Positions 9,171-64,000 of a stretch of DNA of 64,000 bases are shown in pieces. The notes beneath the pieces were generated by a model. That model was not told the DNA's origin. It ran no database searches and saw only the letters and a program-made list of their open reading frames with translations. Made by a program: the position numbers and the translations under genes. Source of the stretch: an uncultured Bacilli bacterium (lineage in GTDB: Bacteria > Bacillota_I > Bacilli_A > RF39 > UBA660); contig CANRPY010000007.1 of assembly GCA_947632595.1 (NCBI GenBank), forward strand, positions 238 to 64,237. Reading direction: 5' to 3'. Each line of letters begins with the position of its first letter. The stretch's first letter is position 1.

Positions 9171-10307
9171 ATGAAAGAACAAACAAAACAAAATAGTTTG
9201 CGCTTAATGGTATTTGAAAGTGCAAAAGAATTAGGAGAAAAGGTAGATAGACATTTACTAGAGATGTATGGAAAAGATCCAAATAAGGAAACTTTTATTG
9301 TACCCATCAAAGAAAACTTCTTTGAAGATGGTCATCTAAAAGTAGAAATTGAAGAAACCGTAAGAGGAAAAGACATGTTCTTATTAACAGACATTGGAAA
9401 TTATTCCATAGAATATAAGATGCATGGTTTTATCAATCACGCATCTCCAAATGATTTAATGATTCAATTAAAAGATGGAATTGGTGCTTGTAAATGTCAT
9501 GCCGATAAGATTAATATTGTCATGCCACTATTATATGCAGGAAGACAACATCGTAGAAATGTAAGAGAAAATCTCTCTTGCGGAATGGCACTTCATGAAT
9601 TAGATAACTTAAGTCATGTAAAAAGTTTTATAACATTTGATGCTCATGACCAAGGAGTAGAACATGCTATTCATAATATGGAATTTGATAACTTTTATCC
9701 AACCAATACCATTCTAGAAAGCATGATCGAAGATCTTCCAAAGGCAAGATTAAAAAAACTAGTATTTGTCGCTCCAGATAATGGGGCAACCGGAAGAAGA
9801 AATGTATACTTAAATTCATTTAATTCCAAATTTATTACAAGAGAAGCAGGAAGTTTTGTAAAACAAAGAGACTATAATAACTTAGTAGATGGAAAATACC
9901 CTGTAATTGCTCATGATTATTGTGGAAATGATGACTTAGAAGGATTTACTGCCATCGTATCAGACGATATGATCTCAAGTGGTGGAAGCATGTTCGATGT
10001 CATTGAAGAATTACAAAAAAGAAATGTAAAACACATTCTAATTGTCGCAACCTATGCACTCTTTACGAGAGGAATTGATCAATTTAAAGAATATTATGAA
10101 AAGAAAATGTTTGATGGAATCTATACAACCAATCTATCCTATATTCCAGAAGAATATCGCAAAGAAAAATGGTTACATATCTGTGACTGTTCAAAGTATT
10201 TAGCAGAAATTATCTATAATATTCATAATGATATTTCGATTACTCCATTATTAAGAGATAAATCCTTACCAGTAAAATTAATAGAAGAAAAATTTAAAGA
10301 AAATTAG
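9171..10307 (+). CDS. Ribose-phosphate pyrophosphokinase family protein (long, divergent form)
   Basis: HLKVEIEETVRGKDMFLL, YAGRQHRR, FDAHDQG and the PRPP-binding loop IVSDDMISSGGS parallel Prs motifs. The sequence is longer and more divergent than canonical Prs. Confidence 0.7.
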   Translation: MKEQTKQNSLRLMVFESAKELGEKVDRHLLEMYGKDPNKETFIVPIKENFFEDGHLKVEIEETVRGKDMFLLTDIGNYSIEYKMHGFINHASPNDLMIQLKDGIGACKCHADKINIVMPLLYAGRQHRRNVRENLSCGMALHELDNLSHVKSFITFDAHDQGVEHAIHNMEFDNFYPTNTILESMIEDLPKARLKKLVFVAPDNGATGRRNVYLNSFNSKFITREAGSFVKQRDYNNLVDGKYPVIAHDYCGNDDLEGFTAIVSDDMISSGGSMFDVIEELQKRNVKHILIVATYALFTRGIDQFKEYYEKKMFDGIYTTNLSYIPEEYRKEKWLHICDCSKYLAEIIYNIHNDISITPLLRDKSLPVKLIEEKFKEN

Positions 10308-12127: not shown

Positions 12128-13591
12128 ATGAAAAGAGTCTATGTATGTATTGATTTAAAGAGTTTTTATGCATCCGTAGAATGCCAAGAAAGAAATTTAG
12201 ATCCTCTAGATACCAATCTTGTGGTAGCTGACCAATCAAGAACAGAAAAAACGATTTGCCTAGCGGTATCCCCATCGCTAAAAAAATATGGAATTCCAGG
12301 AAGAGCAAGACTTTTTGAAGTAATGGAAAAAATAAGAGAAATCAATCAAGAAAGAAGAAAAAGAAATAAAAATCGGAATTGGACAGGAAAAAGTGTTAGT
12401 GAAAAAGTTCTAAAGCAAGATCCAACGAAAGAACTAGATTTAATCATTGCTCCTCCTAGAATGAAAGTATACATGGAGTATAGTACAAAGATATATCATA
12501 CGTATTTAAAATTTGTTGCCGAAGAAGATATCTTTGCATACTCGATTGATGAAGTCTTCTGTGATATTACAAACTATTTAAAAATGTATAAAGCAACGCC
12601 AAGAGAATTATTAACCAAGATGATTCATACTGTCTATGAAGAAACAGGAATTACCGCAACAGGAGGAATTGGAGAGAATATGTATCTTGCAAAAGTGGCG
12701 ATGGATATCGTTGCAAAACACACAGAACCGAATCAATTTGGTGTAAGAATTGCAGAACTAGACGAAAAGAGTTATCGCAAATTTTTATGGAATCATACTC
12801 CTTTGACAGACTTCTGGCGAATAGGCGGAAAAACAGCAGAACACCTAGCAGAAAAAAAGATATACACGATGGGAGATATTGCAAGAGTATCCTTAGAAAA
12901 TGAAGAACTTCTCTACAAAGCATTTGGAGTCAATGCCGAGTTTTTAATAGACCACGCATGGGGAGTAGAACCATGTACCATACAAGATGTAAAAAAATAT
13001 AAGCCAAAAGTAAAAAGTATCTCTTCTGGACAAGTTCTACATAAACCATATGACTATGAACACGCCAAATTAATTGTAAAAGAAATGGCAGATAATTTAA
13101 TCTTAGATTTAGTAGAAAAAGAATTAGAAACCGATTTAATCGCCCTTCAGATTGGCTATGATAAAGAAAGTCTGACATACTATAAGGGAGAGACCATGAA
13201 AGACCATTATGGAAGAGTAGTCCCTAAACACGCTCATTCTTCTCTACGTCTAGAAGAAAAAACATCCTCTAGTAAACAACTTCAACAAGCATTCCTAACA
13301 CTATATGAAAAAATAGTAAATAAAGACTTAACCATTAGAAGACTAAATCTAGCAGCTTGTAATATTACGAAAAAAGGAGAAGGAGCAAAAGTAAAACAAT
13401 TAGATCTCTTTTCGATAGAAGAAGAAAAAGAACAAGAGAAAAAAGACCAAGTAAAAGAAAATCACTTACAGAAAACATTAGTAGAACTAAAAAAGAAATA
13501 TGGAAAAAATTCCATTCTAAAAGGAATGAATTTAGAAGAAGGAGGAACGGCAATTGAAAGAAACAGACAAGTGGGAGGACATAAAGAATAG
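12128..13591 (+). CDS. Y-family (translesion) DNA polymerase, UvrX/YqjW type
   Basis: VYVCIDLKSFYASVECQERNLDP and YSIDEVFCDIT catalytic motifs. The start is moved to ATG 12128, behind the GAAGGTG RBS. Confidence 0.85.
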   Translation: MKRVYVCIDLKSFYASVECQERNLDPLDTNLVVADQSRTEKTICLAVSPSLKKYGIPGRARLFEVMEKIREINQERRKRNKNRNWTGKSVSEKVLKQDPTKELDLIIAPPRMKVYMEYSTKIYHTYLKFVAEEDIFAYSIDEVFCDITNYLKMYKATPRELLTKMIHTVYEETGITATGGIGENMYLAKVAMDIVAKHTEPNQFGVRIAELDEKSYRKFLWNHTPLTDFWRIGGKTAEHLAEKKIYTMGDIARVSLENEELLYKAFGVNAEFLIDHAWGVEPCTIQDVKKYKPKVKSISSGQVLHKPYDYEHAKLIVKEMADNLILDLVEKELETDLIALQIGYDKESLTYYKGETMKDHYGRVVPKHAHSSLRLEEKTSSSKQLQQAFLTLYEKIVNKDLTIRRLNLAACNITKKGEGAKVKQLDLFSIEEEKEQEKKDQVKENHLQKTLVELKKKYGKNSILKGMNLEEGGTAIERNRQVGGHKE

Positions 13592-13982
13592 TTTTCCCTA
13601 TCTCGATATTTTAGAAAAAGATCCACCCATTTCCAAAAAACATCCCAAACAACCTATGGAAGCAAGAGCAGCACAGTTTTCTCCCTTTGCAGCCTTAACA
13701 GGATATGAAGATGCCATCAAAGAAGTCTCTCGTTATACAGAAGAAAAAATTTCTCTAGAAGAAGAAGCAAAAAATGAATTAGATCAAGAACTTCAAAAAA
13801 TAGAACAAAGAACCCGTGCAAAAATAACCATCGTATACTTTGAAAAAGATCCTAGAAAAAAAGGAGGAAAATATAAAGAAATACAAGGTATCTTCCAAAA
13901 AATAGATAGAGAAAAAAGAATCCTTTTTCTAGAAGACAAAACTAAAATTTCATTAGAGGATATTGTAAAGATAGAGAGTTAA
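13554..13982 (+). CDS. YolD-like protein (partner of Y-family polymerases)
   Basis: TTG start 7 nt after GGAGGA. AAQFSPFAALTGYEDAIKE motif. Overlaps the polymerase 3' end by 38 nt, as in the B. subtilis uvrX-yolD and yqjW-yqjX pairs. Confidence 0.6.
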   Translation: MKETDKWEDIKNSFPYLDILEKDPPISKKHPKQPMEARAAQFSPFAALTGYEDAIKEVSRYTEEKISLEEEAKNELDQELQKIEQRTRAKITIVYFEKDPRKKGGKYKEIQGIFQKIDREKRILFLEDKTKISLEDIVKIES

Positions 13983-38906: not shown

Positions 38907-40523
38907 ATGGGTATGTTTTCTAAGAAAGAACCTCGTCCTGTAAAAACAGGCGTAAAGCCTCCAAAAGAAAAAAAGTCAAAAAAGAAACCAAAACCAGAAG
39001 ATTTAACCCCAGCATATGATAACCCAGCCTTTCAAGCACCCGCAATCAATAATACGTATACAGAGCAAACAGGTTCCCTTGCAAACCGCGACAATTCTCT
39101 AATTGATGACAATGCCGTACAACAACAGCCTGCAGAGCAACCACTTCCACAAATTGGTCAAAACTATGATCAAGCCCAACAACCACAAGCAGACCCTAAC
39201 TCTGTACAAGCACAAGTAAATTATAATACAGGAACTCTAGCTCCTCCTCCAACAGAAGTAGCTCTTCCAGAAGAAGCATCTGTCCTTGCCGAAAAAAGAG
39301 GAAAAGTAGAACGCCCTGTTATTCGTTATCGTTACACCATTATCAATAGTATGGGTAAAAAAGAACAAGGTACGTTTGAAGCAGAATCAGAAGGAGATGT
39401 TAGAAACTTCCTTCTAGCACAAGACTATCAAGTTCTAGAAGTAAAAGAACGTTCTGCAACCGATATCGATATTGGAGGAAATGGAAAAATCAATGCCAGT
39501 GACTTATCCTTTTCTCTAACCCAATTATCAACATATTTAAAAGCAGGAATTCCTCTATCTGACTCTGTAAGAATTCTTGCAAAACAATCTAAAAAAGAAA
39601 ATTTAAAGAAAAGTTTTAATCAATTAGTCTATCAATTACTAAAAGGAGAAAACTTCTCAGATGCACTAGAAAAACAGGGAGAAGTATATCCGAAATTATT
39701 AATAAACATGGTAAAAACAGCAGAAATGACAGGAGATTTACCATCGATTCTAGATGATATGGCAGAGTATTATACTTCCATGGATCAAACCAAAAAACAA
39801 ATGAAATCTGCAATGACATATCCATTAGTCGTTTTAACCATCGCAGTTGGTGTATTAATCTTCATGTTAACGTACTTAGTACCACAATTTACCGCAATGT
39901 TTGAAGAGCAAGGAGCAGAACTTCCTCTTTTAACAAGAACAATTGTTAGTGTAAGTGCCTTCATCAAAACAAAATGGTATCTCTTAGTAATTGGAGTAGT
40001 TGCTGTAGTAGGAACTTTCTATTTACTATTTACCAAAGTACAAAAGTTCCGTGAAGTAATTCAAATTATTTTAATGCATCTTCCTGTATTTGGAAACATC
40101 ATTATTTATAATGAAATGGCAAACTTCTCAAAGACTTTTGCTTCCCTTTTAAACCACAGCGTATTTATCACAGACTCTATGGAAATCTTATCCAAAATCA
40201 CATCGAACGAAGTCTACAAAAAGATTATTCAAAAGACTCTAGAAAATCTTGCCAAAGGAGATTCGATTTCCAGTGCCTTCCGTGGAGAATGGGCAATTCC
40301 TATCGTTGCTTATGAAATGATTGTAACAGGAGAATCAACGGGTCAATTAGGAGCCATGATGGAAAAAGTAGCAGCGCACTTCCAAATGTTACATAAAAAT
40401 ATCATTGATCAGATGAAGAGTTTAGTAGAACCTATGATGATTTGTTTCTTAGCTGTCATAGTAGGAATTATCCTAGTATCTATTATTCAACCAATGTTTG
40501 GTATCTATAGCCAAATTAAATAA
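38907..40523 (+). CDS. pilC: Type IV pilus / type II secretion platform protein (PilC/GspF/ComGB family) with a low-complexity N-terminal extension
   Basis: Two GspF-type repeats (SDSVRILAKQ..., TDSMEILSKI...), three TM segments, and the typical YRYTIINSMGKKEQGTFEAESEGDV opening. These are preceded by about 130 aa rich in Q, P and A. Confidence 0.85.
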   Translation: MGMFSKKEPRPVKTGVKPPKEKKSKKKPKPEDLTPAYDNPAFQAPAINNTYTEQTGSLANRDNSLIDDNAVQQQPAEQPLPQIGQNYDQAQQPQADPNSVQAQVNYNTGTLAPPPTEVALPEEASVLAEKRGKVERPVIRYRYTIINSMGKKEQGTFEAESEGDVRNFLLAQDYQVLEVKERSATDIDIGGNGKINASDLSFSLTQLSTYLKAGIPLSDSVRILAKQSKKENLKKSFNQLVYQLLKGENFSDALEKQGEVYPKLLINMVKTAEMTGDLPSILDDMAEYYTSMDQTKKQMKSAMTYPLVVLTIAVGVLIFMLTYLVPQFTAMFEEQGAELPLLTRTIVSVSAFIKTKWYLLVIGVVAVVGTFYLLFTKVQKFREVIQIILMHLPVFGNIIIYNEMANFSKTFASLLNHSVFITDSMEILSKITSNEVYKKIIQKTLENLAKGDSISSAFRGEWAIPIVAYEMIVTGESTGQLGAMMEKVAAHFQMLHKNIIDQMKSLVEPMMICFLAVIVGIILVSIIQPMFGIYSQIK

Positions 40524-40542
40524 TAAAGGAGGTAATGATTGG

Positions 40543-41310
40543 ATGAATATTATCTATATGATTATCTTTTTTATTTTAGGAACTTGTATGGGCTCATTCT
40601 ACACCGTAGTTGGAGAAAGTCTTCCAGAGAAAAAACCTTTTCTAACGAGAAGAAGTGAATGCCCCTCTTGTAAACACATACTTCATTTATGGGATATGGT
40701 TCCTATCCTTTCCTATCTCTTTTTAGGAAAAAAATGTCGTTATTGTAAAAAGAAAATAGATGGTCTATCTACCTATATGGAGTTTTTTACAGGAATTTTA
40801 TTCGCATTGTCTTTTTATCGTTTTGGGATGAGTTACAATCTATGGATCTCTTTTGGAATCATTTCCTTATTGATTATCTTATCCGTATCAGATATCAAAT
40901 ACTATATTATTCCAGATGAAGTCTTAATCTTCTTCTCAGGTTACTTTATCATTATAAATGCCTTATCAGAAGGAGTAATGATTGCACTTCTTCATATCGT
41001 ATATGGACTCATTCTATTTGGATTTATGTATGCCATTCTTCTATTAGGAAACTTTATCTTTAAAAAAGAAACCCTAGGAGGAGGAGATATCAAATTAATG
41101 TTTGTCTTTGGGCAAGTCATCAATCCATTCTTAGGAATTATCGTCATCTTTTGTGCAAGTTTCTTAGCTCTTCCGATTTCTTTAATAATTTTATGGAAGA
41201 AAAAACAAAATCTAATTCCATTTGGGCCCTTCTTAATGGTAAGTTTTCTACTAATCTTTTTCCTACAATTAGACATGACTTCTATAATAGAATGGATCAA
41301 ATCAATTTAA
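40543..41310 (+). CDS. pilD: Prepilin peptidase (A24 family)
   Basis: AAAGGAGG RBS before ATG 40543. CPSC...CRYC zinc motif. Catalytic Asp contexts SDIKYYIIPD and GGGDIKLM. Confidence 0.88.
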   Translation: MNIIYMIIFFILGTCMGSFYTVVGESLPEKKPFLTRRSECPSCKHILHLWDMVPILSYLFLGKKCRYCKKKIDGLSTYMEFFTGILFALSFYRFGMSYNLWISFGIISLLIILSVSDIKYYIIPDEVLIFFSGYFIIINALSEGVMIALLHIVYGLILFGFMYAILLLGNFIFKKETLGGGDIKLMFVFGQVINPFLGIIVIFCASFLALPISLIILWKKKQNLIPFGPFLMVSFLLIFFLQLDMTSIIEWIKSI

Positions 41311-45561: not shown

Positions 45562-46134
45562 ATGAAAAATACGAAAGGATTTACTCTAGTAGAATTACTC
45601 GCAGTCATTGTTATACTAGGAGTCATTACAGGTATGTCTTGGCCAGTAATTCGTAGACTACAAGAACAAAATACATTAAATAAATTTGAGTATTACGGAA
45701 AATCATTAATAGATGCCGCCAAAGTCTACGTAGATAGTTATGAAGAAGATACGTTTTATGATGAAGAAGTATTCAACAATTTAACATTAACAGTAGTACC
45801 ACCTGGTGTAGATAAAGCAAATGGACAATGTGCCACAATCCCGTTATCAGACTTAAAAGCAAAAGCTTTGGCAAAAGATTACCAAGCAGATAATATGTCT
45901 TGTGTGAATGAAGGAACTTTTGTTCTTGTCATCAAAAAGAAAGAAAAGTATACCTATAAATATTTTCTTGCATGTGGTAAAAAAGAAAAAGATGAATTTG
46001 GTAAAACAGTAACAAACAGTCCAAGTCTCATTCTTCCAAGAGATGGAACTCATCGTGCGAGTGATTATTGCAAAATAGCAAAAACGGAAATTGATGATAA
46101 AGAATTTAGTGTACATATTGCTGCTACTACATAA
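45562..46134 (+). CDS. Type IV pilin / pseudopilin (prepilin N-terminal cleavage-methylation domain)
   Basis: MKNTKG/FTLVELLAVIVILGVITGM shows Gly-1, Phe+1 and Glu+5. Four Cys in the globular part. Confidence 0.85.
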   Translation: MKNTKGFTLVELLAVIVILGVITGMSWPVIRRLQEQNTLNKFEYYGKSLIDAAKVYVDSYEEDTFYDEEVFNNLTLTVVPPGVDKANGQCATIPLSDLKAKALAKDYQADNMSCVNEGTFVLVIKKKEKYTYKYFLACGKKEKDEFGKTVTNSPSLILPRDGTHRASDYCKIAKTEIDDKEFSVHIAATT

Positions 46135-49709: not shown

Positions 49710-49718
49710 TGGTATAAT
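49710..49718 (+). promoter_or_regulatory. Extended -10 element TGgTATAAT
   Basis: Exact TGnTATAAT. It overlaps the ORF-track start at 49717, which argues for the downstream ATG at 49747. Confidence 0.5.
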
Positions 49719-49746
49719 GAGAAACATAAAAAGAGGGGGTTGCGTT

Positions 49747-51189
49747 ATGGGAGAATCTTTTTATACACAATTATCGAATCCAATAAGAAATCAAGCAGTG
49801 ATTGGAAAAGTAATTGATCAATATGTAGATAGATACAGTATGTATAGTGCAATTACGAGAAACCCAGAAGAAAAGAAAGTAACAGGATATTGTAATAGAA
49901 AAGATAGAGATGACCTATACTGTTTCTTATTTTCAGAATGGAAAATGATCATGCAAGAACTAGTAAAAAGAGATGTTTTAACAAAAGACTATAAAGGCTT
50001 AGGTAGATACTTAGTAAGATATCTACAAGATAAGAATCCAAAGACGTATGAAGAAGTAATCAAATTAATGGATGAGGAACTTTGTACAGATCCTATGGCC
50101 AAAAAAGCAATCGAACTTTTTGCATGGAATAGAATTGGAAAATATAGTGGATGGGAACATCTTCATTCGAATTATATTCGATATGGTACATCAAAAAATC
50201 AAATAATAAGACACCGTCTTTATATCAATTGTGATTCAACAGTCGTTCACAAAATTGCATTAAAATTTATTCAAAAATGTAATGCTGTTCATTCCTCTTA
50301 CTACCTAAAGTTTGATGATATTGGAAATCGTAGTGATACTTTAGTTGTATATTCAGATAGAAAACACCTTCCTCTCTATGTAAGAATCTTAAAAGAAATT
50401 ATCGAAGAAGAAAAATTAAGTCTAAATATGCATACACCTCCACTTTTAACAAGTAAAATAGGAAGTTTTATTGGATATGGTTCCGAACCACAAGAAAAAG
50501 ATACTTCATTTAATGAAAAAAGAGCAGAGCACTTAGAGTACTGTATGAAAAATGAGTATGCCAACTGGTTGAAGAAAAATAAAAATGCAACCGTAACGAA
50601 AAATAATACCTCTTGTACTTATGAGGAATACCTAGTAAGAGCCATTACCCAAAATACGTATCAGTATTATTTAGAGAATACAAAAGATACGCAAGAAGAA
50701 AGAACTAGAAAAGGATATCAAAAAAGAGATTTGAATACACAAAACTTCTTAAATCAAGTAAGAAGAACCATTCAACAAAATTGGGTTGCCATCACTTCTT
50801 ACTTACAAGGAGCAGGGATCCAATCAACAATCGAATTTCCTTTCCTAAATGGAAGAATAAGAATCAATTCTTCTATTTTAGAAAAAACTAGAAAAGAACA
50901 AATCGCTTTTCTATATCATAATTCTGAATCTTTCCGTACATCTTTACTAAAAAGAATCAAAGATACGTCTCATAATTTCGGAATAGATCCAGAAAACTAT
51001 GCATGTGACTTATATGTAAAACAAGAATTACAAGAAGAAAATCATGGTGTTAAAAACCTTCATCCTACAAACAATGTGGAACCAAATGTTACTTATCAAA
51101 GAGCTCCACAACGTAGAAAAAAAGCATACATTTATCAACCTATGAGCGAGGAAGAAATCAAAGCAGCACAAAAAAAATTAGGATTTTAA
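49747..51189 (+). CDS. Hypothetical protein (weak resemblance to the HopA1-type effector family)
   Basis: AGAGGGGG RBS 7 nt before ATG 49747. The block HRLYINCDSTVVHKIALKFIQKC...YLKFDD...RSDTLVVYSD recalls the R.Y.N...K.....R.D..V.Y pattern of that family, recalled from memory. Confidence 0.3.
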   Translation: MGESFYTQLSNPIRNQAVIGKVIDQYVDRYSMYSAITRNPEEKKVTGYCNRKDRDDLYCFLFSEWKMIMQELVKRDVLTKDYKGLGRYLVRYLQDKNPKTYEEVIKLMDEELCTDPMAKKAIELFAWNRIGKYSGWEHLHSNYIRYGTSKNQIIRHRLYINCDSTVVHKIALKFIQKCNAVHSSYYLKFDDIGNRSDTLVVYSDRKHLPLYVRILKEIIEEEKLSLNMHTPPLLTSKIGSFIGYGSEPQEKDTSFNEKRAEHLEYCMKNEYANWLKKNKNATVTKNNTSCTYEEYLVRAITQNTYQYYLENTKDTQEERTRKGYQKRDLNTQNFLNQVRRTIQQNWVAITSYLQGAGIQSTIEFPFLNGRIRINSSILEKTRKEQIAFLYHNSESFRTSLLKRIKDTSHNFGIDPENYACDLYVKQELQEENHGVKNLHPTNNVEPNVTYQRAPQRRKKAYIYQPMSEEEIKAAQKKLGF

Positions 51190-57087: not shown

Positions 57088-57116
57088 AAAATAGGATGAA
57101 TATCATCCTATTTTTC
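57086..57116. terminator. Bidirectional terminator between convergent genes
   Basis: ATAGGATGA-ata-TCATCCTAT hairpin flanked by AAAAA and TTTTT. Confidence 0.7.
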
Positions 57117-58355
57117 TGTATCTTCCTCATCGCTTTCTTCGTCTTCATCAATTTCTTTATGAATGTTTTTGGTAAGACCAATTCCTGCGGCACCAGAAAT
57201 TACACCAACAAGAGCAGGAGTAATATAGTCTTCAATTCCCATCTTACCACCAACTCCCGTATCAGGAATTGGAGCATATTCTGTTGTGGCAGGTGGAGTA
57301 GTAACTACCGTAGGATTGGTAGGAGTGGTAATGGAATGTTCATCTATTCCACTAGTTTCTTCACGATATTGAGGCGCTGGTGCAGGCTCTGTAGGAGGTG
57401 GACCATAAAGTAATTGACGATCCTCTTCGAAACTATACTGTAAATCATCATCCGCTTTTACCCCATATAATACTTGTTGAACAGGTTCTGTTGTTTCAAC
57501 TGGATGAACTTCAGGAGCAGGACGAGGACCATATAATACTTGTTCCACTCGGCCAGAATCTTCGATGGCATGAATTTCAGGTTCTGGCTCAACTGGAGGA
57601 GGTCCATAAAGTAACTGACGATCTTCTTCGTAGCCAACCTGCAAATCATCATCCGCTTTTACTCCGTATAATACTTGTTCAACTCTGCCTTCTACTGGAT
57701 GAGCCTCAGGAGCAGGACGAGCCCCATATAAGACCTGTCGATTTTCTTCTACGACAACAGTCTCTTCATCTCCAGTTAAAACATCATCGCTAGATCTTAC
57801 TCCATATAAAACTTGTTCCACACGCTCTGGTTCTTCCACCATATGAACTTCAGGAGTAGGACGAGCTCCGTATAATACCTGTTGAACAGGTTCTGCTTCC
57901 ACCGTTTGTACAATATCCGGTTTTTTCACTCCATATAATACTTGAACTTCTCTTTCACGAACAGTCTTCACATCAATGATTTTTGGCATACCATTTAATG
58001 TTTGTGCACCAGCCGCAATCGCAACCGCACTAGAAGCAGCAATTGTTTTAGGAATAGCCGCAGAATCTTGTGTTGGAGTATCCAAACTCTTAATTTTCTC
58101 AGCAGAATCAACCATTTGATCATATAATTTTTTAGTATCTTCTCTACATTGAACCATTAATTTTTCAGGCATTCTCATATTAATAGAAGAATCATCTTGT
58201 TCTAGAAAAGAAAACCCTTTTGCATAAGCAATATCCATAACAGCACGATACAATAGATAATCAACATCAATCAAATCATTTTGAATATCCTGGAAAAGAG
58301 CAATCGCATCTTGTACTTGCCCTTCATTATATTGAATCCCAAAATCATTACTCAT
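57108..58355 (-). CDS. Repeat protein: helical N-domain, nine (V/L)LYG repeats, C-terminal TM anchor and acidic tail
   Basis: GTGAGGTGA RBS. Nine Q(V/L)LYG(V/A/P) motifs. TM ITPALVGVISGAAGIGLT near the C-terminus, then DEDEESDEEDTEK. Confidence 0.7.
   Translation of the reverse strand: MSNDFGIQYNEGQVQDAIALFQDIQNDLIDVDYLLYRAVMDIAYAKGFSFLEQDDSSINMRMPEKLMVQCREDTKKLYDQMVDSAEKIKSLDTPTQDSAAIPKTIAASSAVAIAAGAQTLNGMPKIIDVKTVREREVQVLYGVKKPDIVQTVEAEPVQQVLYGARPTPEVHMVEEPERVEQVLYGVRSSDDVLTGDEETVVVEENRQVLYGARPAPEAHPVEGRVEQVLYGVKADDDLQVGYEEDRQLLYGPPPVEPEPEIHAIEDSGRVEQVLYGPRPAPEVHPVETTEPVQQVLYGVKADDDLQYSFEEDRQLLYGPPPTEPAPAPQYREETSGIDEHSITTPTNPTVVTTPPATTEYAPIPDTGVGGKMGIEDYITPALVGVISGAAGIGLTKNIHKEIDEDEESDEEDTEK
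57395..57950 (-). repeat. In-frame coding tandem repeats
   Basis: CCATATAA(T/G)AC(T/C)TGT recurs on the + strand. Two long units of about 200 nt, starting at 57401 and 57601, begin with near-identical GG(A/T)CCATAAAGTAA(T/C)TGACGATC(C/T)TCTTCG. Confidence 0.8.
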
Positions 58356-58743
58356 AGCTAGTCACCTCACTAGGAACGCCGCCTTTTAATTCTAACTGTT
58401 CTTTTTCTTGTCTTTTTGCTTCCTCGTTAAGAATAACTTGTTTACGATTAAGTACCTTTTCACAAGTAGTTGTAATAGAGCTCGCTAAATCATCTAAATA
58501 CAAAGAAAAATTTTGAACACTTTTCTGATATTCACCAATTTTTTCATCAAATCCAACACCATCAATAGAAAGATTCTCTTTCGTACAAAGACTTTGTAAA
58601 GTTCCAATTTTAAAAGAAATATCATTTAATTTTTGAGAGACATCTTTCATAGAAGAACAACCACTTAATATGGTAGATGCATCAATCATTTCATGAGCAT
58701 CTTGAGCTGTAACGATAGTTCCCTTATATATATCAATTGCCAT
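58348..58743 (-). CDS. Hypothetical 131-aa helical protein, translationally coupled to the repeat protein
   Basis: AGGAGG RBS. 8-nt overlap with the downstream gene. No signal peptide. Three Cys. Confidence 0.6.
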   Translation of the reverse strand: MAIDIYKGTIVTAQDAHEMIDASTILSGCSSMKDVSQKLNDISFKIGTLQSLCTKENLSIDGVGFDEKIGEYQKSVQNFSLYLDDLASSITTTCEKVLNRKQVILNEEAKRQEKEQLELKGGVPSEVTSYE

Positions 58744-58865
58744 AATATCTATCCTCCTAAACTAATTTAATTGTATCATAGAAAAGAAACGAAAGAAAAT
58801 AGAAAAATAAATTATTCTAGCAAACCATTTCCTATTGTGTTATAGTTAATGGTAGAGGTGTAACA

Positions 58866-59963
58866 ATGATAAGTGATTTAGAAAAAAGAAAAAAAGAATA
58901 TGAAATGGAATTACTACATGAAGAGAGAAAAAGATTATATGAACATCCACAATTAAGACACTTATTTTTGGAAGTAACATCAAGATGCAATGCAAGATGT
59001 GAACACTGTGGAAGTAGATGCGATGAGAACGAGCAAGGAGAAGAAATTAGTGCAGAAGCATTAAAGAAAACACTAAAAGAAGTTGCTGAATGCTATAACC
59101 CTAGAAAAATACTTTTAAATGTTACAGGAGGAGAGCCTCTTGTTAGAAAAGATTTATTTGATATCTTAGAATATGCAGTAAGTCTAGGTTTTCCATGGGG
59201 AATGACTTCAAATGGAATTCTTATTTCCGATGAAATGGTAAAAAAACTAGAAAAAGCAAAAATGTCAACAGTATCGATTAGTATAGATGGACTAAGAGAA
59301 ACTCATGAATCCTTCCGTAAAGTAAAAAACTGCTATGACAGAATTCTACATGGAATCGATAAAATGATTGAGTCTCCTGTCATTAAAATTGTGCAAGTAA
59401 CAACAGTAGCCAATAAGAAAAATATTCATGAATTAGAAGCAATCTACCAAATGTTATTAGAACATAAAGTCCAATATTGGAGAGTAGTAAATTGTGATCC
59501 AATTGGTAGAGCAAATGATAACAAAGAGATTTTCTTAGATATGGAAGACTATAAATATTTATTTAAATTTATTACAGAAAAACAAAAAGAAGGAAAAATG
59601 AAAGAAATTTCCTATGGATGTAGTCACTATCTAGGATTAAATGCAGAAAAAACAGTAAGAAATAATTATTTTATTTGTATGACAGGATTATATGTAGGTA
59701 GTATTTTAAGTAATGGAGATATCTTTGTATGTCCAAATGTCCCAAGAAGAAAAGAATTAATTCAAGGAAATATTAAAACCGATAGTTTTGTAGATGTATG
59801 GGAAAATAAATTTAAATGTTACAGAACAGAAAATAGAACTTCGAATGCAAAATGTAAAAGATGCAAACACTGGAATTATTGTGGAGGAGATTCTTTCCAT
59901 ACCTGGAATTTTGATGAGAAAAAACCAAATATCTGTTTAAAAGAAATCTTTGAAGATCTATAG
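58866..59963 (+). CDS. Radical SAM enzyme with a C-terminal SPASM-type auxiliary cluster domain
   Basis: CNARCEHC (CX3CX2C). GGEP. ISIDG. SPASM pattern C-x12-G-x4-C, then CKRCKHWNYCGGDS, with Ser where the fourth Cys of CX2CX5CX3C is expected. Confidence 0.8.
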   Translation: MISDLEKRKKEYEMELLHEERKRLYEHPQLRHLFLEVTSRCNARCEHCGSRCDENEQGEEISAEALKKTLKEVAECYNPRKILLNVTGGEPLVRKDLFDILEYAVSLGFPWGMTSNGILISDEMVKKLEKAKMSTVSISIDGLRETHESFRKVKNCYDRILHGIDKMIESPVIKIVQVTTVANKKNIHELEAIYQMLLEHKVQYWRVVNCDPIGRANDNKEIFLDMEDYKYLFKFITEKQKEGKMKEISYGCSHYLGLNAEKTVRNNYFICMTGLYVGSILSNGDIFVCPNVPRRKELIQGNIKTDSFVDVWENKFKCYRTENRTSNAKCKRCKHWNYCGGDSFHTWNFDEKKPNICLKEIFEDL

Positions 59964-59986
59964 AAACTAGCAATGCTAGTTTTTTA
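59964..59986 (+). terminator. Rho-independent terminator
   Basis: AAACTAGC-aat-GCTAGTTT hairpin plus a T-run. Confidence 0.6.
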
Positions 59987-60075
59987 TTTGGAAAAATGAA
60001 AAAGAGAAAAGATAGGATATTGCTTTTTTAAATGGTCTCAATTATAATGTTAAATATAAGATAGTAGGTGTATGT

Positions 60076-63000
60076 ATGAAGAAAAATGGTAAAAAGAATA
60101 TGAATCACAAAGGATTTTCCTTTGTTGAGCTTTTAGCGGCAATTGTAATAATTGGAATTCTCTCCTTTTTCGCAGTAACTGCTGTCAATAGATACATCAA
60201 GCAATCAAAAGATGTAAAAAATGACGAAAATATAAAAAATATTAAGATGGCTGCCCAAATGTATCTGCAAGCAAATCGTAGTAGTCTTCCAAAAAATATA
60301 GGAGAAAACGTAATAATAGAAGCAAAGACCCTAAGAGATTCCAATTATTTAAAAGAAGACATTACAAACGCAAAAGGGGAAAACTGTATGCAGTCATCCG
60401 TTCGCGTTTATCACTATGATCGAGATGAATACTCCTATTATGTTAATATGGCATGTGGAAATGAAGAAGGCCTAAAAGATGATGATGATACAATACCAGC
60501 TCCAAGCATTGATATCGATTTCTATAACGATGATAAAGCAACAAAAGAAGTAAAAACAAATGATGTTAACAATGTTTACTTTGAAGCAAATATTTGCGGA
60601 GATGATGCTTGTGACGGTTCATCAAAAGACGATGAGCAACTAGGAATCTATAGTTATTCTTATGAAATCTATGCCATATATGACGAAGATAATAAAGAAA
60701 AAGAAGAAAAACAACAATTAGTATATAACAGCGGTAATTTAAAAGGTGGTTTGCAAACACAACTTAAAATAGTATCCAAACGTGTTTCAGAATATGTCAA
60801 TTTTTCTGGATTTACCATGATAAGCGTAAAAATAACAGCCGTAAATGAACAAGGAATCAGTTATACAGAAACGGTCGCAAGTGCAGATTATAAAGATAAT
60901 AATCCACCAGTTTGTAAAACAGGGAATCAAGATAGCCAAGAAGAAAGCAAATATTATCCAGGAGAAGCAATAAACGATAATGACTGGTTAAATAAAAAAG
61001 CCTATTATAATTTTATAAATGGAAAATCCTATGAATCTACCTATCGTACAGATACGGTAAATAACTTAAGAACAGAAAAGTTTAAAAATGATCATACATT
61101 TAAAATAACTGCATATTGTGATGATGGATTTGGATCTGGATGTATTAGAAACTCTTTCGTTAGAACATGGCCTAACGGAGATAATTCAAAGAATAACCAA
61201 ATTAAATACCAATACGGTGCAAGATGGTCTAATATAACCATAAAAGATAATGCAAATCATGCTACAGATTGTTATGTACGTGCAAATGTTGACTTAAAAG
61301 CACCAACCATAAAAGTAGATGTATATAAAGTAAATGGTAATAAAAAGACCTTACTAAAAGAATTATCAAGAGAATTTACAAATAACGAGATAGAGGATAA
61401 TGGTGAAGGAGATAATTATACAATTTCTTGTGCGGATTCAAAGGATAAAAAGAATTGTCCAAAAGATTTAGTAGAATCAAGCACAGGAGAACTTTGGATG
61501 AATGCAGAGAATTATCCTGGAGGAACTCTAGAAATTGATATTGAAATGGAAGATAATTTGTATTTACATGACTATACATGGGAATTAAATGATCCATATA
61601 TCGGAAGTGGAAAATCTGTTGGAGATCCTTCTTTGAAGAACGCAAAGGATGAACAAGGAAATAGTGAAATAGTTCAAAAAGTTTTTGCAGAAAATAATTC
61701 GGACGAAAGAGTTAGCGATTTGAAAGGTGACAATGTAGAACATTCAAGATTATCGGCAAGTGTAGAAGGGTTAAAAATTAATCGAGAAGGAAAACGATAT
61801 GGAAAATTCACGGCATGTGATAAAGCAGGAAACTGTACAACAGTTAATTTCTACTTTAATATTGATATAACACCACCTCCAACACCAACTCCTAGCTATG
61901 TTAAAGATAATAAAAATCATACAAAATATAGTCCTGCGGATTGGACTAATTATAGTAAGGAAGAAGCCACACATTGGTCAAATATAAATGTTATAGCTTA
62001 TATTCCAGAAACTTATGCAAACGATAAAAATACACAAGATAAAAATAGAAAAGATAGTTTATCAGGATTTGATCATTTTAATTATTATTATGCTCAACAA
62101 AATGGTAAATGGTCTTGGAAAAAAGCAAACCGTACACAATTATCAAATTATAGTTCCTATAAGTATGGATACTTAATAAAGGACCAAGGAACTCACAAAA
62201 TATCATTTACGAGTTGTGACAAAGCGCAAAATTGTACACCAAAGCCAAAATTAGATGATTATATTCGTGTTGATACGCTAGCCCCTTCTTGTACTACAAG
62301 AAAAGTACCTAGCGATAACAACTGGCAGAACCAACCAGTTACTGTTTATGGTGATTGTTACGAAAGCAATAAAATAGGCGAGGATTATTCAAGTGGTTGT
62401 GTAAAAGATAAGGACGGTTTAACATCTATTTATAAACGTTATGAGAATGACATAAATACAAATAATGCAGGAGCTGCGGGAGTAAATGATAAAGGAACAG
62501 TTTACGATTATGCAGGTAATTCCGCAACTTGTGGTTATAAAACCGTAAAGATAGATACAGAAGCACCGACATGTTCATATCATCCAGAAGATGTAGCGTG
62601 CCAAACAAATATGTATGGACGAAAAGTTTGTACAAAAATTAGATATGATTTTTCGTGCTATGATGATTACGTAAATGGTGTGCGTTCAGGATGTAATCCT
62701 GCCCCAAATTCTGTAACTTTTTCAAGCAATGGCAAATTTAAACCTTCAAGTTATTCCGTATCAGACAAGGCGGGCAACAAAAGAAAATGTTCAGGTGATG
62801 AAATAGATGTTGTATTAGAAGATGCACCAAAAGGAAAATGTTCCATTTCAAATGGAAAAATTAATGTACAAGTAATAAAAAATGAGAATTCAAGTGGAGT
62901 TCAAACTATTACATACAGTTTAGATGGAACAAATTATTCGTCTGATAATTCTATACCAAGTTGCGAATCAACAAAAAAGACATATTATCCGAAGGCTAAA

Positions 63001-63489
63001 ATTATATCTAAATCCGGACTTGTAAGTGAAGAAATATCCTGCGGCAATGTTGAAGTTCCTAATTGTTGTTCTAGCACCTATTCTAAACAAGGTACCTGTA
63101 ATGCAGAATGTGGTGGAGGGAAAGCAACTAATAGATATTATTCGACATATGATAATAGAGATTGTGGTAGTAGTAGTCAAGTAGACTGTAACACCGATCC
63201 TTGTGGTTCACAGGTGAATGACTGTAAAGTCCGTGGGAAAACAAAATATAATGTATCAAGATGGTATAATTGTTCAGGAAATGATGCTACAGAATCTGCT
63301 CCGCACATGAAAGCTTATATTCATTATTGCTGGGATGCAAAAAAACAAAAATATGTAACAAAAAATGAAGATGATAGTTTAAATACTTTCTCATATGTAT
63401 GCCCAAATAAACCTTATACAGAACAAGATGGATGGACAATCATTGATGATCCAGCAGACAATGGATATCAAGGAAGAGAGGTTAAGTAA
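60076..63489 (+). CDS. Giant modular type IV pilin-like protein (prepilin signal, pilin head, Cys-rich adhesin-like modules)
   Basis: MKKNGKKNMNHKG/FSFVELLAAIVIIGIL shows Gly-1, Phe+1 and Glu+5. The pilin head resembles the 45562 pilin. Five DxAGN...C...D..AP modules. C-terminal CX3CGGG...CNTDPC motif. Confidence 0.8.
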   Translation: MKKNGKKNMNHKGFSFVELLAAIVIIGILSFFAVTAVNRYIKQSKDVKNDENIKNIKMAAQMYLQANRSSLPKNIGENVIIEAKTLRDSNYLKEDITNAKGENCMQSSVRVYHYDRDEYSYYVNMACGNEEGLKDDDDTIPAPSIDIDFYNDDKATKEVKTNDVNNVYFEANICGDDACDGSSKDDEQLGIYSYSYEIYAIYDEDNKEKEEKQQLVYNSGNLKGGLQTQLKIVSKRVSEYVNFSGFTMISVKITAVNEQGISYTETVASADYKDNNPPVCKTGNQDSQEESKYYPGEAINDNDWLNKKAYYNFINGKSYESTYRTDTVNNLRTEKFKNDHTFKITAYCDDGFGSGCIRNSFVRTWPNGDNSKNNQIKYQYGARWSNITIKDNANHATDCYVRANVDLKAPTIKVDVYKVNGNKKTLLKELSREFTNNEIEDNGEGDNYTISCADSKDKKNCPKDLVESSTGELWMNAENYPGGTLEIDIEMEDNLYLHDYTWELNDPYIGSGKSVGDPSLKNAKDEQGNSEIVQKVFAENNSDERVSDLKGDNVEHSRLSASVEGLKINREGKRYGKFTACDKAGNCTTVNFYFNIDITPPPTPTPSYVKDNKNHTKYSPADWTNYSKEEATHWSNINVIAYIPETYANDKNTQDKNRKDSLSGFDHFNYYYAQQNGKWSWKKANRTQLSNYSSYKYGYLIKDQGTHKISFTSCDKAQNCTPKPKLDDYIRVDTLAPSCTTRKVPSDNNWQNQPVTVYGDCYESNKIGEDYSSGCVKDKDGLTSIYKRYENDINTNNAGAAGVNDKGTVYDYAGNSATCGYKTVKIDTEAPTCSYHPEDVACQTNMYGRKVCTKIRYDFSCYDDYVNGVRSGCNPAPNSVTFSSNGKFKPSSYSVSDKAGNKRKCSGDEIDVVLEDAPKGKCSISNGKINVQVIKNENSSGVQTITYSLDGTNYSSDNSIPSCESTKKTYYPKAKIISKSGLVSEEISCGNVEVPNCCSSTYSKQGTCNAECGGGKATNRYYSTYDNRDCGSSSQVDCNTDPCGSQVNDCKVRGKTKYNVSRWYNCSGNDATESAPHMKAYIHYCWDAKKQKYVTKNEDDSLNTFSYVCPNKPYTEQDGWTIIDDPADNGYQGREVK

Positions 63490-63968
63490 TGAAACAAAAA
63501 CGAAAATTAAAACTCATTATAACAGTCATAATTATCATAGTCATAATTATAGTAGGAGCATATCTTATCTTCCATAAAGAAGAGAAAAAAGAAAAAGAGA
63601 AAGGGTATCCAATCAAAAATATAGTGAACAAAGATCTTGGTGATGAGCATTGTTTAGATGATTTCTGTTTAAAGAATATGACAATTGCCTATTATAAAGA
63701 TTCTATCTCTTCAATTTATGCAGAATTAATAAATAAGAGTGGTGAAGTAAAAGATATATGTTTAAAAATTTCTTTTAAGTCGAAAGGAATTGAAAAAACA
63801 TTTGATTATAGCACTTGCTATTTAAAAGCAGATCCAAACAAAGAAAATCCAATTGAAACATATTTTGGAGAAGAAGAAAAAGACGTTGTTTTTGCAAACA
63901 ATTATCAAATATCATATCTAGCACCAGAAGAAGAACAAGAAATATTAAGTACAAAAGAAAGTGAATAG
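63489..63968 (+). CDS. Single-pass membrane protein coupled to the giant pilin gene
   Basis: TAATG stop/start overlap. N-terminal anchor LIITVIIIIVIIIVGAYLIF. Four Cys in the external domain. Confidence 0.6.
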   Translation: MKQKRKLKLIITVIIIIVIIIVGAYLIFHKEEKKEKEKGYPIKNIVNKDLGDEHCLDDFCLKNMTIAYYKDSISSIYAELINKSGEVKDICLKISFKSKGIEKTFDYSTCYLKADPNKENPIETYFGEEEKDVVFANNYQISYLAPEEEQEILSTKESE

Positions 63969-63975
63969 TTAGAAA

Positions 63976-64000
63976 AAGTCAATGTGAGATACATTGACTT
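63976..64000 (+). terminator. Probable terminator hairpin, cut by the window end
   Basis: AAGTCAATGT-gagat-ACATTGACTT hairpin. The T-run would lie beyond base 64000. Confidence 0.45.

Follow-up and report, generated by a model that had tools for sequence, protein, structure and literature searches.

According to our analysis, the open reading frame (ORF) at 60076..63489 on the forward strand of a 64-kb stretch of contig CANRPY010000007.1, from an uncultured Bacilli bacterium, most likely codes for a modular minor type IV pilin of giant size, which would display an adhesin stalk, probably at the tip of the pilus. We give this reading a probability of about 0.6. The whole stretch of 64,000 nucleotides (nt) is referred to as the window. 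The predicted protein of 1,137 amino acids (aa) carries a canonical prepilin signal and a pilin head, followed by a short linker, a series of immunoglobulin (Ig)-like modules, a repeat resembling the thrombospondin (TSP) type-1 repeat, and a Cys-rich tail.

The N-terminal pilin module

Three elements make up the N-terminal part of the giant pilin; the confidence of their structural models is given as the predicted local distance difference test (pLDDT) score.

60076..60114, forward strand: prepilin leader peptide, aa 1 to 13, MKKNGKKNMNHKG, with Gly-1 at its end
60115..60456, forward strand: pilin module, aa 14 to 127, with Phe+1, Glu+5, helix alpha1 reaching aa 66, a small beta-sheet, and the Cys104-Cys127 pair
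60457..60504, forward strand: acidic/Pro linker, aa 128 to 143, GNEEGLKDDDDTIPAP, where pLDDT drops to 57 to 60

The first-pass annotation had described the N terminus as a textbook substrate of a prepilin peptidase, and the profile searches agree, with scores above the cut-offs for both Pfam N_methyl (23.8 bits, cut-off 21.2) and TIGR02532 (22 bits, cut-off 16.3). The 13-aa leader is basic and ends in Gly-1, ahead of Phe+1 and Glu+5 (MKKNGKKNMNHKG followed by FSFVELLAAIVIIGILSFFAVTAV), so that the short basic leader, the Gly, the hydrophobic run, and the Glu+5 of a class III signal are all found (MKKNGKKNMNHKG followed by FSFVELLAAIVIIGILSFFAV). Phe14 and Glu18 are invariant among 37 homologues. 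A profile built from 37 family members matches helix alpha1 of solved pilins with E values of 1e-12 to 7e-9, the best matches being Geobacter PilA-N (E = 1e-12) and Streptococcus sanguinis PilE1 (E = 7e-9), and further ones being to Pseudomonas, Neisseria, and other solved pilins.

The same helix gives weak NCBIfam matches to GspG and ComGE, and the only source name that we found in the family, attached to homologue P0007, is 'type II secretion system protein [Bacilli bacterium]'. Both observations would suit a pseudopilin of a type II secretion-like or competence system. However, the matches amount to 18.6 bits against a cut-off of 88.85 for GspG and 22 against 49 for ComGE, with the N-terminal helix alone aligned, and an identity with either equivalog was therefore rejected. 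The name of P0007 is a generic label set off by the N_methyl motif, the platform protein encoded in the window scores as the PilC/GspF type over ComGB, and monoderms have no outer membrane for a type II secretion system to cross. A pseudopilin is thus deemed improbable.

The head had also been said to parallel the stand-alone pilin encoded at 45562..46134, and this parallel turned out to extend well past the helix. When a profile of the first 140 residues of the giant pilin was aligned with the stand-alone pilin by hhalign, 122 columns were matched with a probability of 98.9% and an E value of 2.6e-17, from residues 7 to 131 of the giant pilin and 2 to 143 of the stand-alone one, through the beta region and including the terminal pattern C..V.V.K....Y.Y....CG; BLAST aligned alpha1 only (35% identity over 57 aa). 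Judged by these alignments, the head comprises an entire pilin module, with homology to the stand-alone pilin from end to end. Tyr119, Tyr121, and Cys127 are invariant among the 37 homologues, in 33 of which Cys104 is conserved too. Cys104 and Cys127 delimit a loop like that of the disulfide-bonded D region, with the same C...CG spacing in the stand-alone pilin, and a Cys104-Cys127 bond is accordingly presumed within the head. The AlphaFold model of the head, computed with the family alignment, consists of a 50-residue alpha1 helix (residues 16 to 66) packed on a small beta-sheet (strands within residues 78 to 124) and reaches a pLDDT of 87.5 when the head is modeled alone. In the linker that follows, Pro143 is almost invariant among the homologues.

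A predicted stalk of Ig-like modules with paired cysteines

Beyond the linker, the full-length AlphaFold model (mean pLDDT 76.8) is all-beta, and we divided it into seven domains ahead of the TSP-like repeat.

60505..60909, forward strand: D1, a unique all-beta domain, aa 144 to 278, with strands from the AlphaFold 2 model
60910..61305, forward strand: D2, the most conserved module, aa 279 to 410, with D-G-x-G-S-G-C and the ending D-N-A-N-H..C..VD..AP
61306..61878, forward strand: D3, an Ig-like module with an insertion, aa 411 to 601, ending C-DKAGN-C...IDITPP
61879..62286, forward strand: D4, an Ig-like module, aa 602 to 737, ending C-DKAQN-C...VDTLAP
62287..62829, forward strand: D5 and D6, two Ig-like modules of about 90 aa, aa 738 to 831 and 832 to 918
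62830..63045, forward strand: D7, a degenerate copy of the same module, aa 919 to 990, aligned by hhalign to D2 (83%) and D5 (73%)

In profile-profile comparisons, D2 to D7 (aa 279 to 990) are mutually related, with probabilities of 25 to 98% and of at least 58% in 12 of the 15 pairs; the best pair is D5 and D6 (98.1%, E = 7e-14), each of which has S-G-C and D-x-A-G-N...C...D...AP and a pLDDT mostly between 80 and 93. D1 and the C terminus are unrelated to D2 to D7 in the same comparisons. The five recurrences of a D-x-A-[GQN]-N motif that were noticed at first pass are all there, within about 10 nt of where they had been placed: four are exact, at aa 582, 715, 811, and 897 (nt 61819, 62218, 62506, and 62764), and the fifth is the looser D-N-A-N-H at aa 391 (nt 61246), the Asp391 of which is invariant among the homologues. 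According to these alignments, the recurrences are true internal repeats. D2 stands out with four invariant Cys residues (280, 348, 356, and 399).

As to the nature of the repeats, the first-pass annotation took the motif as the ending of HYR/Ig-like adhesin modules, of which the Ig-like part appears to hold and the HYR part does not. Among the 37 members, Pfam recognized N_methyl in all 37 (best E = 1.9e-8), Big_3_2 in 12 (best E = 8e-5), Big_13 in 9 (best E = 3.3e-5), and TSP_1 in 3 (best E = 0.0018), but HYR (PF02494) in only 6, weakly (best E = 0.034), and the HYR profile does not match the giant pilin of the window at an E value of 1 or less. HYR membership was therefore rejected, the ending D-x-A-G-N...C...D..P being a mere resemblance, and the D2 to D7 repeats appear to be Ig-like rather than HYR proper. 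An OmpL47-type match within D4 (aa 690 to 722) reached 27 bits, below its cut-off of 40. When the whole model was searched with Foldseek, the PDB and viral libraries returned only long Ig/FN3 arrays, with template modeling (TM) scores of 0.1 to 0.3, namely, the GhpA grappling hook, complement MG domains, the EA1 S-layer protein, an adhesin extender, and viral FN3 proteins; the best matches were 9flp (E = 2.6e-11) and 6xi3 (E = 1e-6). Together with the AlphaFold 2 model, these matches support arrays of beta-sandwiches.

The estimate of roughly 38 Cys residues proved exact: there are 38, or 3.3% of the protein. Across the 37 homologues, several of them are gained or lost jointly. Cys581 and Cys587 of D3 are both present in 19 and both missing in 18; Cys714 and Cys720 of D4 are both present in 23 and both missing in 14, the same counts as for Cys861 and Cys873; and Cys452 and Cys461 occur together in 2 and are both missing in 35. 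No homologue has only one member of any of these four pairs. This is the pattern expected for structural disulfides, and we infer that the pairs are bonded.

A thrombospondin type-1-like repeat near the C terminus

Two further features complete the protein.

63064..63207, forward strand: TSP type-1-repeat-like unit, aa 997 to 1044, CC...C-NAE-C-GGG...R...C...C-NTDP-C
63208..63489, forward strand: C-terminal Cys-rich tail, aa 1045 to 1137, and stop codon, with pLDDT mostly below 60

A comparison with TSP_1 profiles had been suggested at first pass, and its outcome depends on whether the family or the window's own unit is considered. We aligned 16 Cys-rich units of the family, the consensus of which is CC...C-S-x-x-C-G-G-G-x-x-x-R...C...C-N-T-Q-x-C, and the resulting profile matched repeats of human thrombospondin-1 (7yyk, E = 5.8e-8; 1lsl, E = 2.2e-5) and, to a lesser degree, F-spondin, ADAMTS13, semaphorin 5A, and TRAP, in alignments that span the full repeat (E values from 5.8e-8 to 0.07). 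The reversed-sequence control gave a best E value of 0.39, to an unrelated protein. Pfam TSP_1 itself matches 5 of the 16 units (best E = 5.8e-6). The unit of the window, taken alone, stays below threshold (E = 0.45) and below every Pfam cut-off; it has the Cys framework and the C-x-x-x-C-G-G-G and lacks the Trp residues. The profile match together with its reversed control thus supports a TSP type-1-like identity at the family level. The tail beyond the repeat matched no family in our profile searches.

The TSP type-1 repeat is usually regarded as an animal or apicomplexan domain, and the family shares the spacing C-S-x-x-C-G-x-G-x-x-x-R...C...C...C with the repeats of TSP-1, F-spondin, ADAMTS13, and apicomplexan TRAP/CSP. 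Unlike the animal repeats, those described here belong to a bacterial host, the family's unit is preceded by a CC pair, and its Trp ladder is often reduced, and absent in the window's single copy. In animals and parasites, TSP type-1 repeats serve adhesion (PMC3417536). One or two copies were seen at the C-terminal end of relatives (P0003 to P0022), some of which keep W-x-x-W-S-x-C-S in their units (e.g., P0015, P0016, and P0019).

The fusion across a large protein family

The fusion of the pilin head to the stalk appears to be a conserved property of the family. Our first search yielded 37 close homologues of 797 to 1,914 aa, each with the motif K/R-G-F-[ST]-x-x-E-L-L. We then searched 1.84 billion representatives with a profile from which the head had been left out, and 3,407 proteins were matched at an E value of 0.001 or less, 1,139 at 1e-10 or less, and 244 at 1e-30 or less. 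Among the 150 best representatives, 494 to 2,450 aa long, the full prepilin motif is present in 120, and another 7 start within alpha1 and look like start-codon miscalls, which gives the 127 of 150 in which a head can be recognized; the remaining 23 are mostly N-terminally truncated fragments, along with about nine unrelated proteins with Sec signals which share only the Ig-like repeats. Since the head-less matches almost always begin at target residue 125 to 160 or so, the pilin head always precedes D1. On these sequence grounds, the fusion is conserved across a large family, a point which the first-pass annotation had proposed to check. With 244 clusters at an E value of 1e-30 or less and a generic type II secretion name at best, the annotation of this family would improve with a defined model. 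The sample names of the relatives (Hadza gut and a series of rumen metagenome-assembled genomes [MAGs]), together with the label 'Bacilli bacterium', suggest uncultured gut Bacilli as hosts. A Pfam scan also found a choline-binding repeat match in one family member, and a scan of genome contigs for the generic pattern G-F-T-L-V-E-L-L retrieved ordinary pilins from many phyla.

The same comparisons dispose of a further explanation, raised at first pass as a refuting condition, by which the gene would be an assembly chimera or a decaying pseudogene. Nothing speaks for it beyond the unusual size of the ORF and its metagenomic origin. The frame is uninterrupted from its ATG start; the G+C content of the gene (32.6%) is near that of the window (31.9%), so that the gene looks native, and the composition of the protein, rich in N, K, S, D, and Y, is likewise that of the window. 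A second, independent assembly (a 6.3-kb ENA contig) holds an identical protein with the same neighbors, and more than 100 homologues have the same architecture. We regard this explanation as refuted.

The partner gene and the genomic context

The gene of the giant pilin is delimited by two hairpins and shares its transcription unit with a small downstream gene, for which counterparts were listed in relatives.

59964..59989, forward strand: terminator-like hairpin and T-run, 3' of a radical S-adenosylmethionine (SAM)/SPASM gene, read from the sequence (AAACTAGCAATGCTAGTTTTTTATTT)
63489..63968, forward strand: partner gene, 159 aa, with an N-terminal membrane anchor, an external domain of about 120 aa, and 4 Cys residues
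63977..63999, forward strand: hairpin 3' of the partner gene, read from the sequence, any T-run being lost at the window end
L002, 13530-14039 and 17537-18283, strand not stated: partner genes of a relative
L003, 14022-14768, strand not stated: partner gene of a relative
L005, 15546-16253, strand not stated: partner gene of a relative
L006, 9481-9978, strand not stated: partner gene of a relative
L063, 13113-13838, strand not stated: partner gene of a relative

The start codon of the partner gene overlaps the stop codon of the giant pilin gene (TAATG), an arrangement by which the two are predicted to be translationally coupled and cotranscribed; the hairpin at 63977..63999 is a likely terminator. 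In the loci of relatives, a small anchored protein is encoded directly after 10 of 11 giant-pilin genes, and tandem arrays in which giant pilin and partner genes alternate twice are found in L002, L005, and L006. The partners fall into at least two families, one of 159 to 169 aa with E-H-C-L-D-D-x-C, as in the window, and one of 235 to 248 aa, which are mutually unrelated and have no Pfam match. Homologues of the window's own partner occur in L002 (39% identity) and L006 (30%). In three relatives (L002, L063, and L064), the pilin/partner pair lies between yceD-rpmF and addB-addA, and in L028, an Erysipelotrichaceae MAG, ordinary-sized pilins (188 and 458 aa) are encoded after yceD. L062, the most distant of the relatives examined, has no partner of either family. 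Its giant pilin is flanked by paralogous 191-aa proteins (9376-9951 and 13161-13736) which are 48% identical and have signal-like N termini (...AYAAMS), and the locus continues with two S26 signal peptidase genes and a DUF5305 gene; these flanking genes resemble SipW-dependent secretion cassettes of the TasA/camelysin type.

Upstream, a TATAAT and then an AGGTG ribosome-binding site lie between the hairpin at 59964..59989 and the ATG of the giant pilin; a promoter with this TATAAT, the -35 element of which is weak, was not listed by our consensus promoter scan. The radical SAM/SPASM gene itself (58866..59963) ends 112 nt upstream on the same strand. Given this vicinity and the richness of the giant pilin in Cys, the protein could be thought of as the substrate of the radical SAM/SPASM enzyme, its Cys residues being cross-linked as thioethers instead of disulfides. 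Yet the terminator-like hairpin, as read from the sequence, separates this gene from the pilin transcription unit, the gene is absent beside the giant pilins in all seven contexts of relatives that were examined, and the Cys residues covary as the local pairs typical of disulfides. SPASM maturases, moreover, are cytoplasmic and act on small peptides. We hold such a modification to be very improbable.

Pilus genes elsewhere in the window

Three other genes of the window are related to type IV pili.

38907..40523, forward strand: PilC/GspF-type platform protein, 538 aa (T2SSF, 172.8 bits; GspF 305 against ComGB 142 bits)
40498..41310, forward strand: prepilin peptidase of the A24 type (A24_N_bact, 92.5 bits; Peptidase_A24, 53.3 bits)
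45562..46134, forward strand: stand-alone pilin, 190 aa (N_methyl, 33.4 bits), with a head homologous to that of the giant pilin

The platform and peptidase genes overlap and lie about 20 kb upstream of the giant pilin, isolated between tgt and a gene for a DnaB-like loader; the platform protein has an unusual N-terminal extension of about 140 aa. This pair stands without an assembly ATPase gene beside it, and the pilus genes seem to be scattered in this organism. Only two prepilin motifs occur in the window, that of the giant pilin and that of the stand-alone pilin, which by its sequence is a candidate filament subunit.

Comparison with known pilins and adhesins

A modular pilin has been defined as an N-terminal pilin module to which a short linker joins one or several modules whose use is not confined to pilus biology (PMC8179133). 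This is the organization found here, with the head at aa 1 to 127, the linker at aa 128 to 143, and then the Ig-like and TSP-like modules. Modular pilins explain how simple pili acquire many functions. The most extreme case in the 2021 survey of such proteins has 860 aa (PMC8179133), and the closest known examples, S. sanguinis PilB with a vWA module and PilC with a lectin module, are minor pilins thought to be located at the tip (PMC8179133, PMC9934059, PMC10628169). Like these two, the giant pilin belongs to a monoderm, starts with a canonical class III signal that includes Glu+5, and connects a small pilin module via a short linker to a bulky effector; since such an effector cannot pack in the filament body, tip display and a role in adhesion are expected. 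The statement made at first pass that known modular pilins are much smaller was borne out, PilB being about 50 kDa with one grafted domain. The giant pilin, by contrast, has about 1,000 residues and at least nine modules grafted onto its head, and its relatives reach 2,450 aa. Again unlike PilB and PilC, what is grafted is an Ig-like stalk with a TSP-like repeat, rich in paired Cys, and the gene lies outside a pilus operon and has a dedicated downstream partner gene. The modular pilins studied so far carry one grafted domain of 30 to 40 kDa, a principle which the giant family would extend to 110 to 260 kDa. With respect to the described modular pilins, the novelty thus lies in a size two to three times the maximum, the multimodule Ig-like stalk, the paired Cys, the TSP-like repeat, the partner gene, and the nonoperon location. 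Our literature search for 'giant' or 'large modular' pilins turned up the S. sanguinis papers alone, and that for Erysipelotrichaceae pili just the tad and comG loci of Bulleidia.

Three other kinds of protein were compared. CofB and TcpB, of enterotoxigenic Escherichia coli (ETEC) and Vibrio cholerae, occupy the tip, initiate assembly, and have a binding partner (CofJ, or TcpF/phage pIII). These large minor pilins from the tips of type IVb pili, discussed in PMC8179133, resemble the giant pilin in that extra beta-rich domains come after a pilin module. They differ from it in having about 500 aa and two extra domains, in belonging to type IVb systems of diderms, and in having their genes within the pilus operon; the sequences are not similar past alpha1, and the short leader and Phe+1 of the giant pilin are type IVa-like. 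The PilY1/PilC tip adhesins of the type IVa pili of diderms are likewise large (about 1,000 aa or more) and modular, with variable effector modules. Unlike the giant pilin, which would be its own carrier, PilY1 is no pilin at all: it lacks a class III signal and attaches to the minor-pilin complex via a beta-propeller. Both identities, with a CofB/TcpB-type IVb pilin and with PilY1, were set aside. Finally, the Ig-repeat adhesins and surface proteins (Aureispira GhpA, the extenders of RTX adhesins, and Bacillus anthracis EA1) have in common with the giant pilin a string of beta-sandwiches, which in the giant pilin is predicted to form a stalk, but the similarity is one of generic fold only (TM scores of 0.15 to 0.3 and 8 to 10% identity), and for export or anchoring they use type IX or type I secretion or S-layer-homology (SLH) domains.

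Proposed display at the pilus tip and possible anchoring at the wall

In the mode of display that we favor, the giant pilin would be inserted through Sec and cleaved after Gly13 by the A24 peptidase, which would also N-methylate Phe14, and the machinery of the type IV pilus would then take up its alpha1 helix. Since the module of about 110 kDa could not pack in the filament body, the subunit is expected at the pilus tip or close to it. The array of Ig-like modules would form a slender stalk of roughly 30 nm, which could thread through the cell wall and present the TSP-like end and the distal Cys-rich modules as the ligand-binding part; the ligand is probably a glycan or protein of host or microbial origin in the gut. 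The partner protein may assist in folding, retaining, or loading this subunit at the membrane. The adhesin function is putative, as is the 'anaerobe' label given to the host at first pass; the paired Cys and the TSP-like repeat, which uncultured Bacilli of the gut and rumen would expose at their surface, point to a role in binding the host or particles.

Several observations weigh against the favored reading. Glu+5 is invariant among the 37 homologues, and the apical subunit of a pilus is usually devoid of it (PMC10628169), which suggests that the giant pilin is not the uppermost subunit and may need another above it. Its gene lies outside a pilus operon both here and in all relatives examined, none of the loci of which has pilus machinery adjoining the giant pilins, and no T2SSE/PilB assembly ATPase was found among the ORFs of the window. 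As for the pilin fold proposed at first pass as a test of the head, the predicted helix and beta-sheet agree with it, but nothing significant was retrieved when the head was compared with the PDB by Foldseek (best E = 0.55, with pilins in the second and tenth places at E values of 1.4 to 1.8), and the pilin assignment hence rests on sequence profiles and predicted topology. Two relatives, in addition, carry SLH domains, P0018 at aa 1095 to 1137 and P0080 (2,450 aa) from aa 1166, which is more in keeping with an association with the wall than with a position at a distal pilus tip.

Some of these points can be accommodated if the protein is a pilin-anchored, wall-spanning surface protein outside any filament, which uses its class III signal for export and anchoring or for a very short pseudopilus. 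Its stalk would cross the wall and expose the distal domains, standing in for a sortase-anchored adhesin or an S-layer-associated protein. The distance of the gene from the pilus machinery and its housekeeping site in relatives (yceD-rpmF ... addBA), the wall-binding SLH domains, the lack of an ATPase gene among the ORFs of the window, and a rod of about 30 nm, which would nearly match a Gram-positive wall in thickness, are all consistent with such a protein. Against it stands the head itself, complete with Phe+1, Glu+5, and a conserved globular part and homologous to a normal-sized pilin of the same genome, since a mere anchor could do without such conservation; the window also has a gene for a PilC-type platform protein. 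We consider anchoring alone rather unlikely, though it is the alternative that we take most seriously, and continue to favor a modular minor pilin at the tip. How a giant subunit is extracted from the membrane and passes the wall, whether it is a tip subunit, and what its partner does are the questions that this family raises.

A broader proposal, which we put forward as a doubtful extrapolation, is that a lineage of low-GC gut Bacilli uses the type IV pilus machinery as a general display route for very large adhesins. Such a distinct pilin-dependent system might combine a conserved pilin carrier with TSP-tipped Ig-like stalks of 1,000 to 2,450 aa, each with its own membrane-anchored loading factor and some with SLH domains; it might replace sortase-anchored adhesins, and its TSP-like tip might bind host matrix or glycosaminoglycans.

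Neighboring genes

The stand-alone pilin gene is located between a gene of the small-multidrug-export family and a phosphoglucomutase gene. The product of the radical SAM/SPASM gene is closest to TIGR04133 (298 bits, below the cut-off of 425), and the gene adjoins two divergent genes at 57108..58743 on the reverse strand which have no family match; this locus (57108..59963) may serve peptide maturation and is apparently unrelated to the pilin. At 49717..51189, a 490-aa protein is encoded for which the profile of the HopA1 effectors (PF17914) gave an E value of 4e-6 and 27.3 bits, above its cut-off of 22.7. Known from type III effectors of plant pathogens, this family is unexpected in a low-GC gut bacterium.

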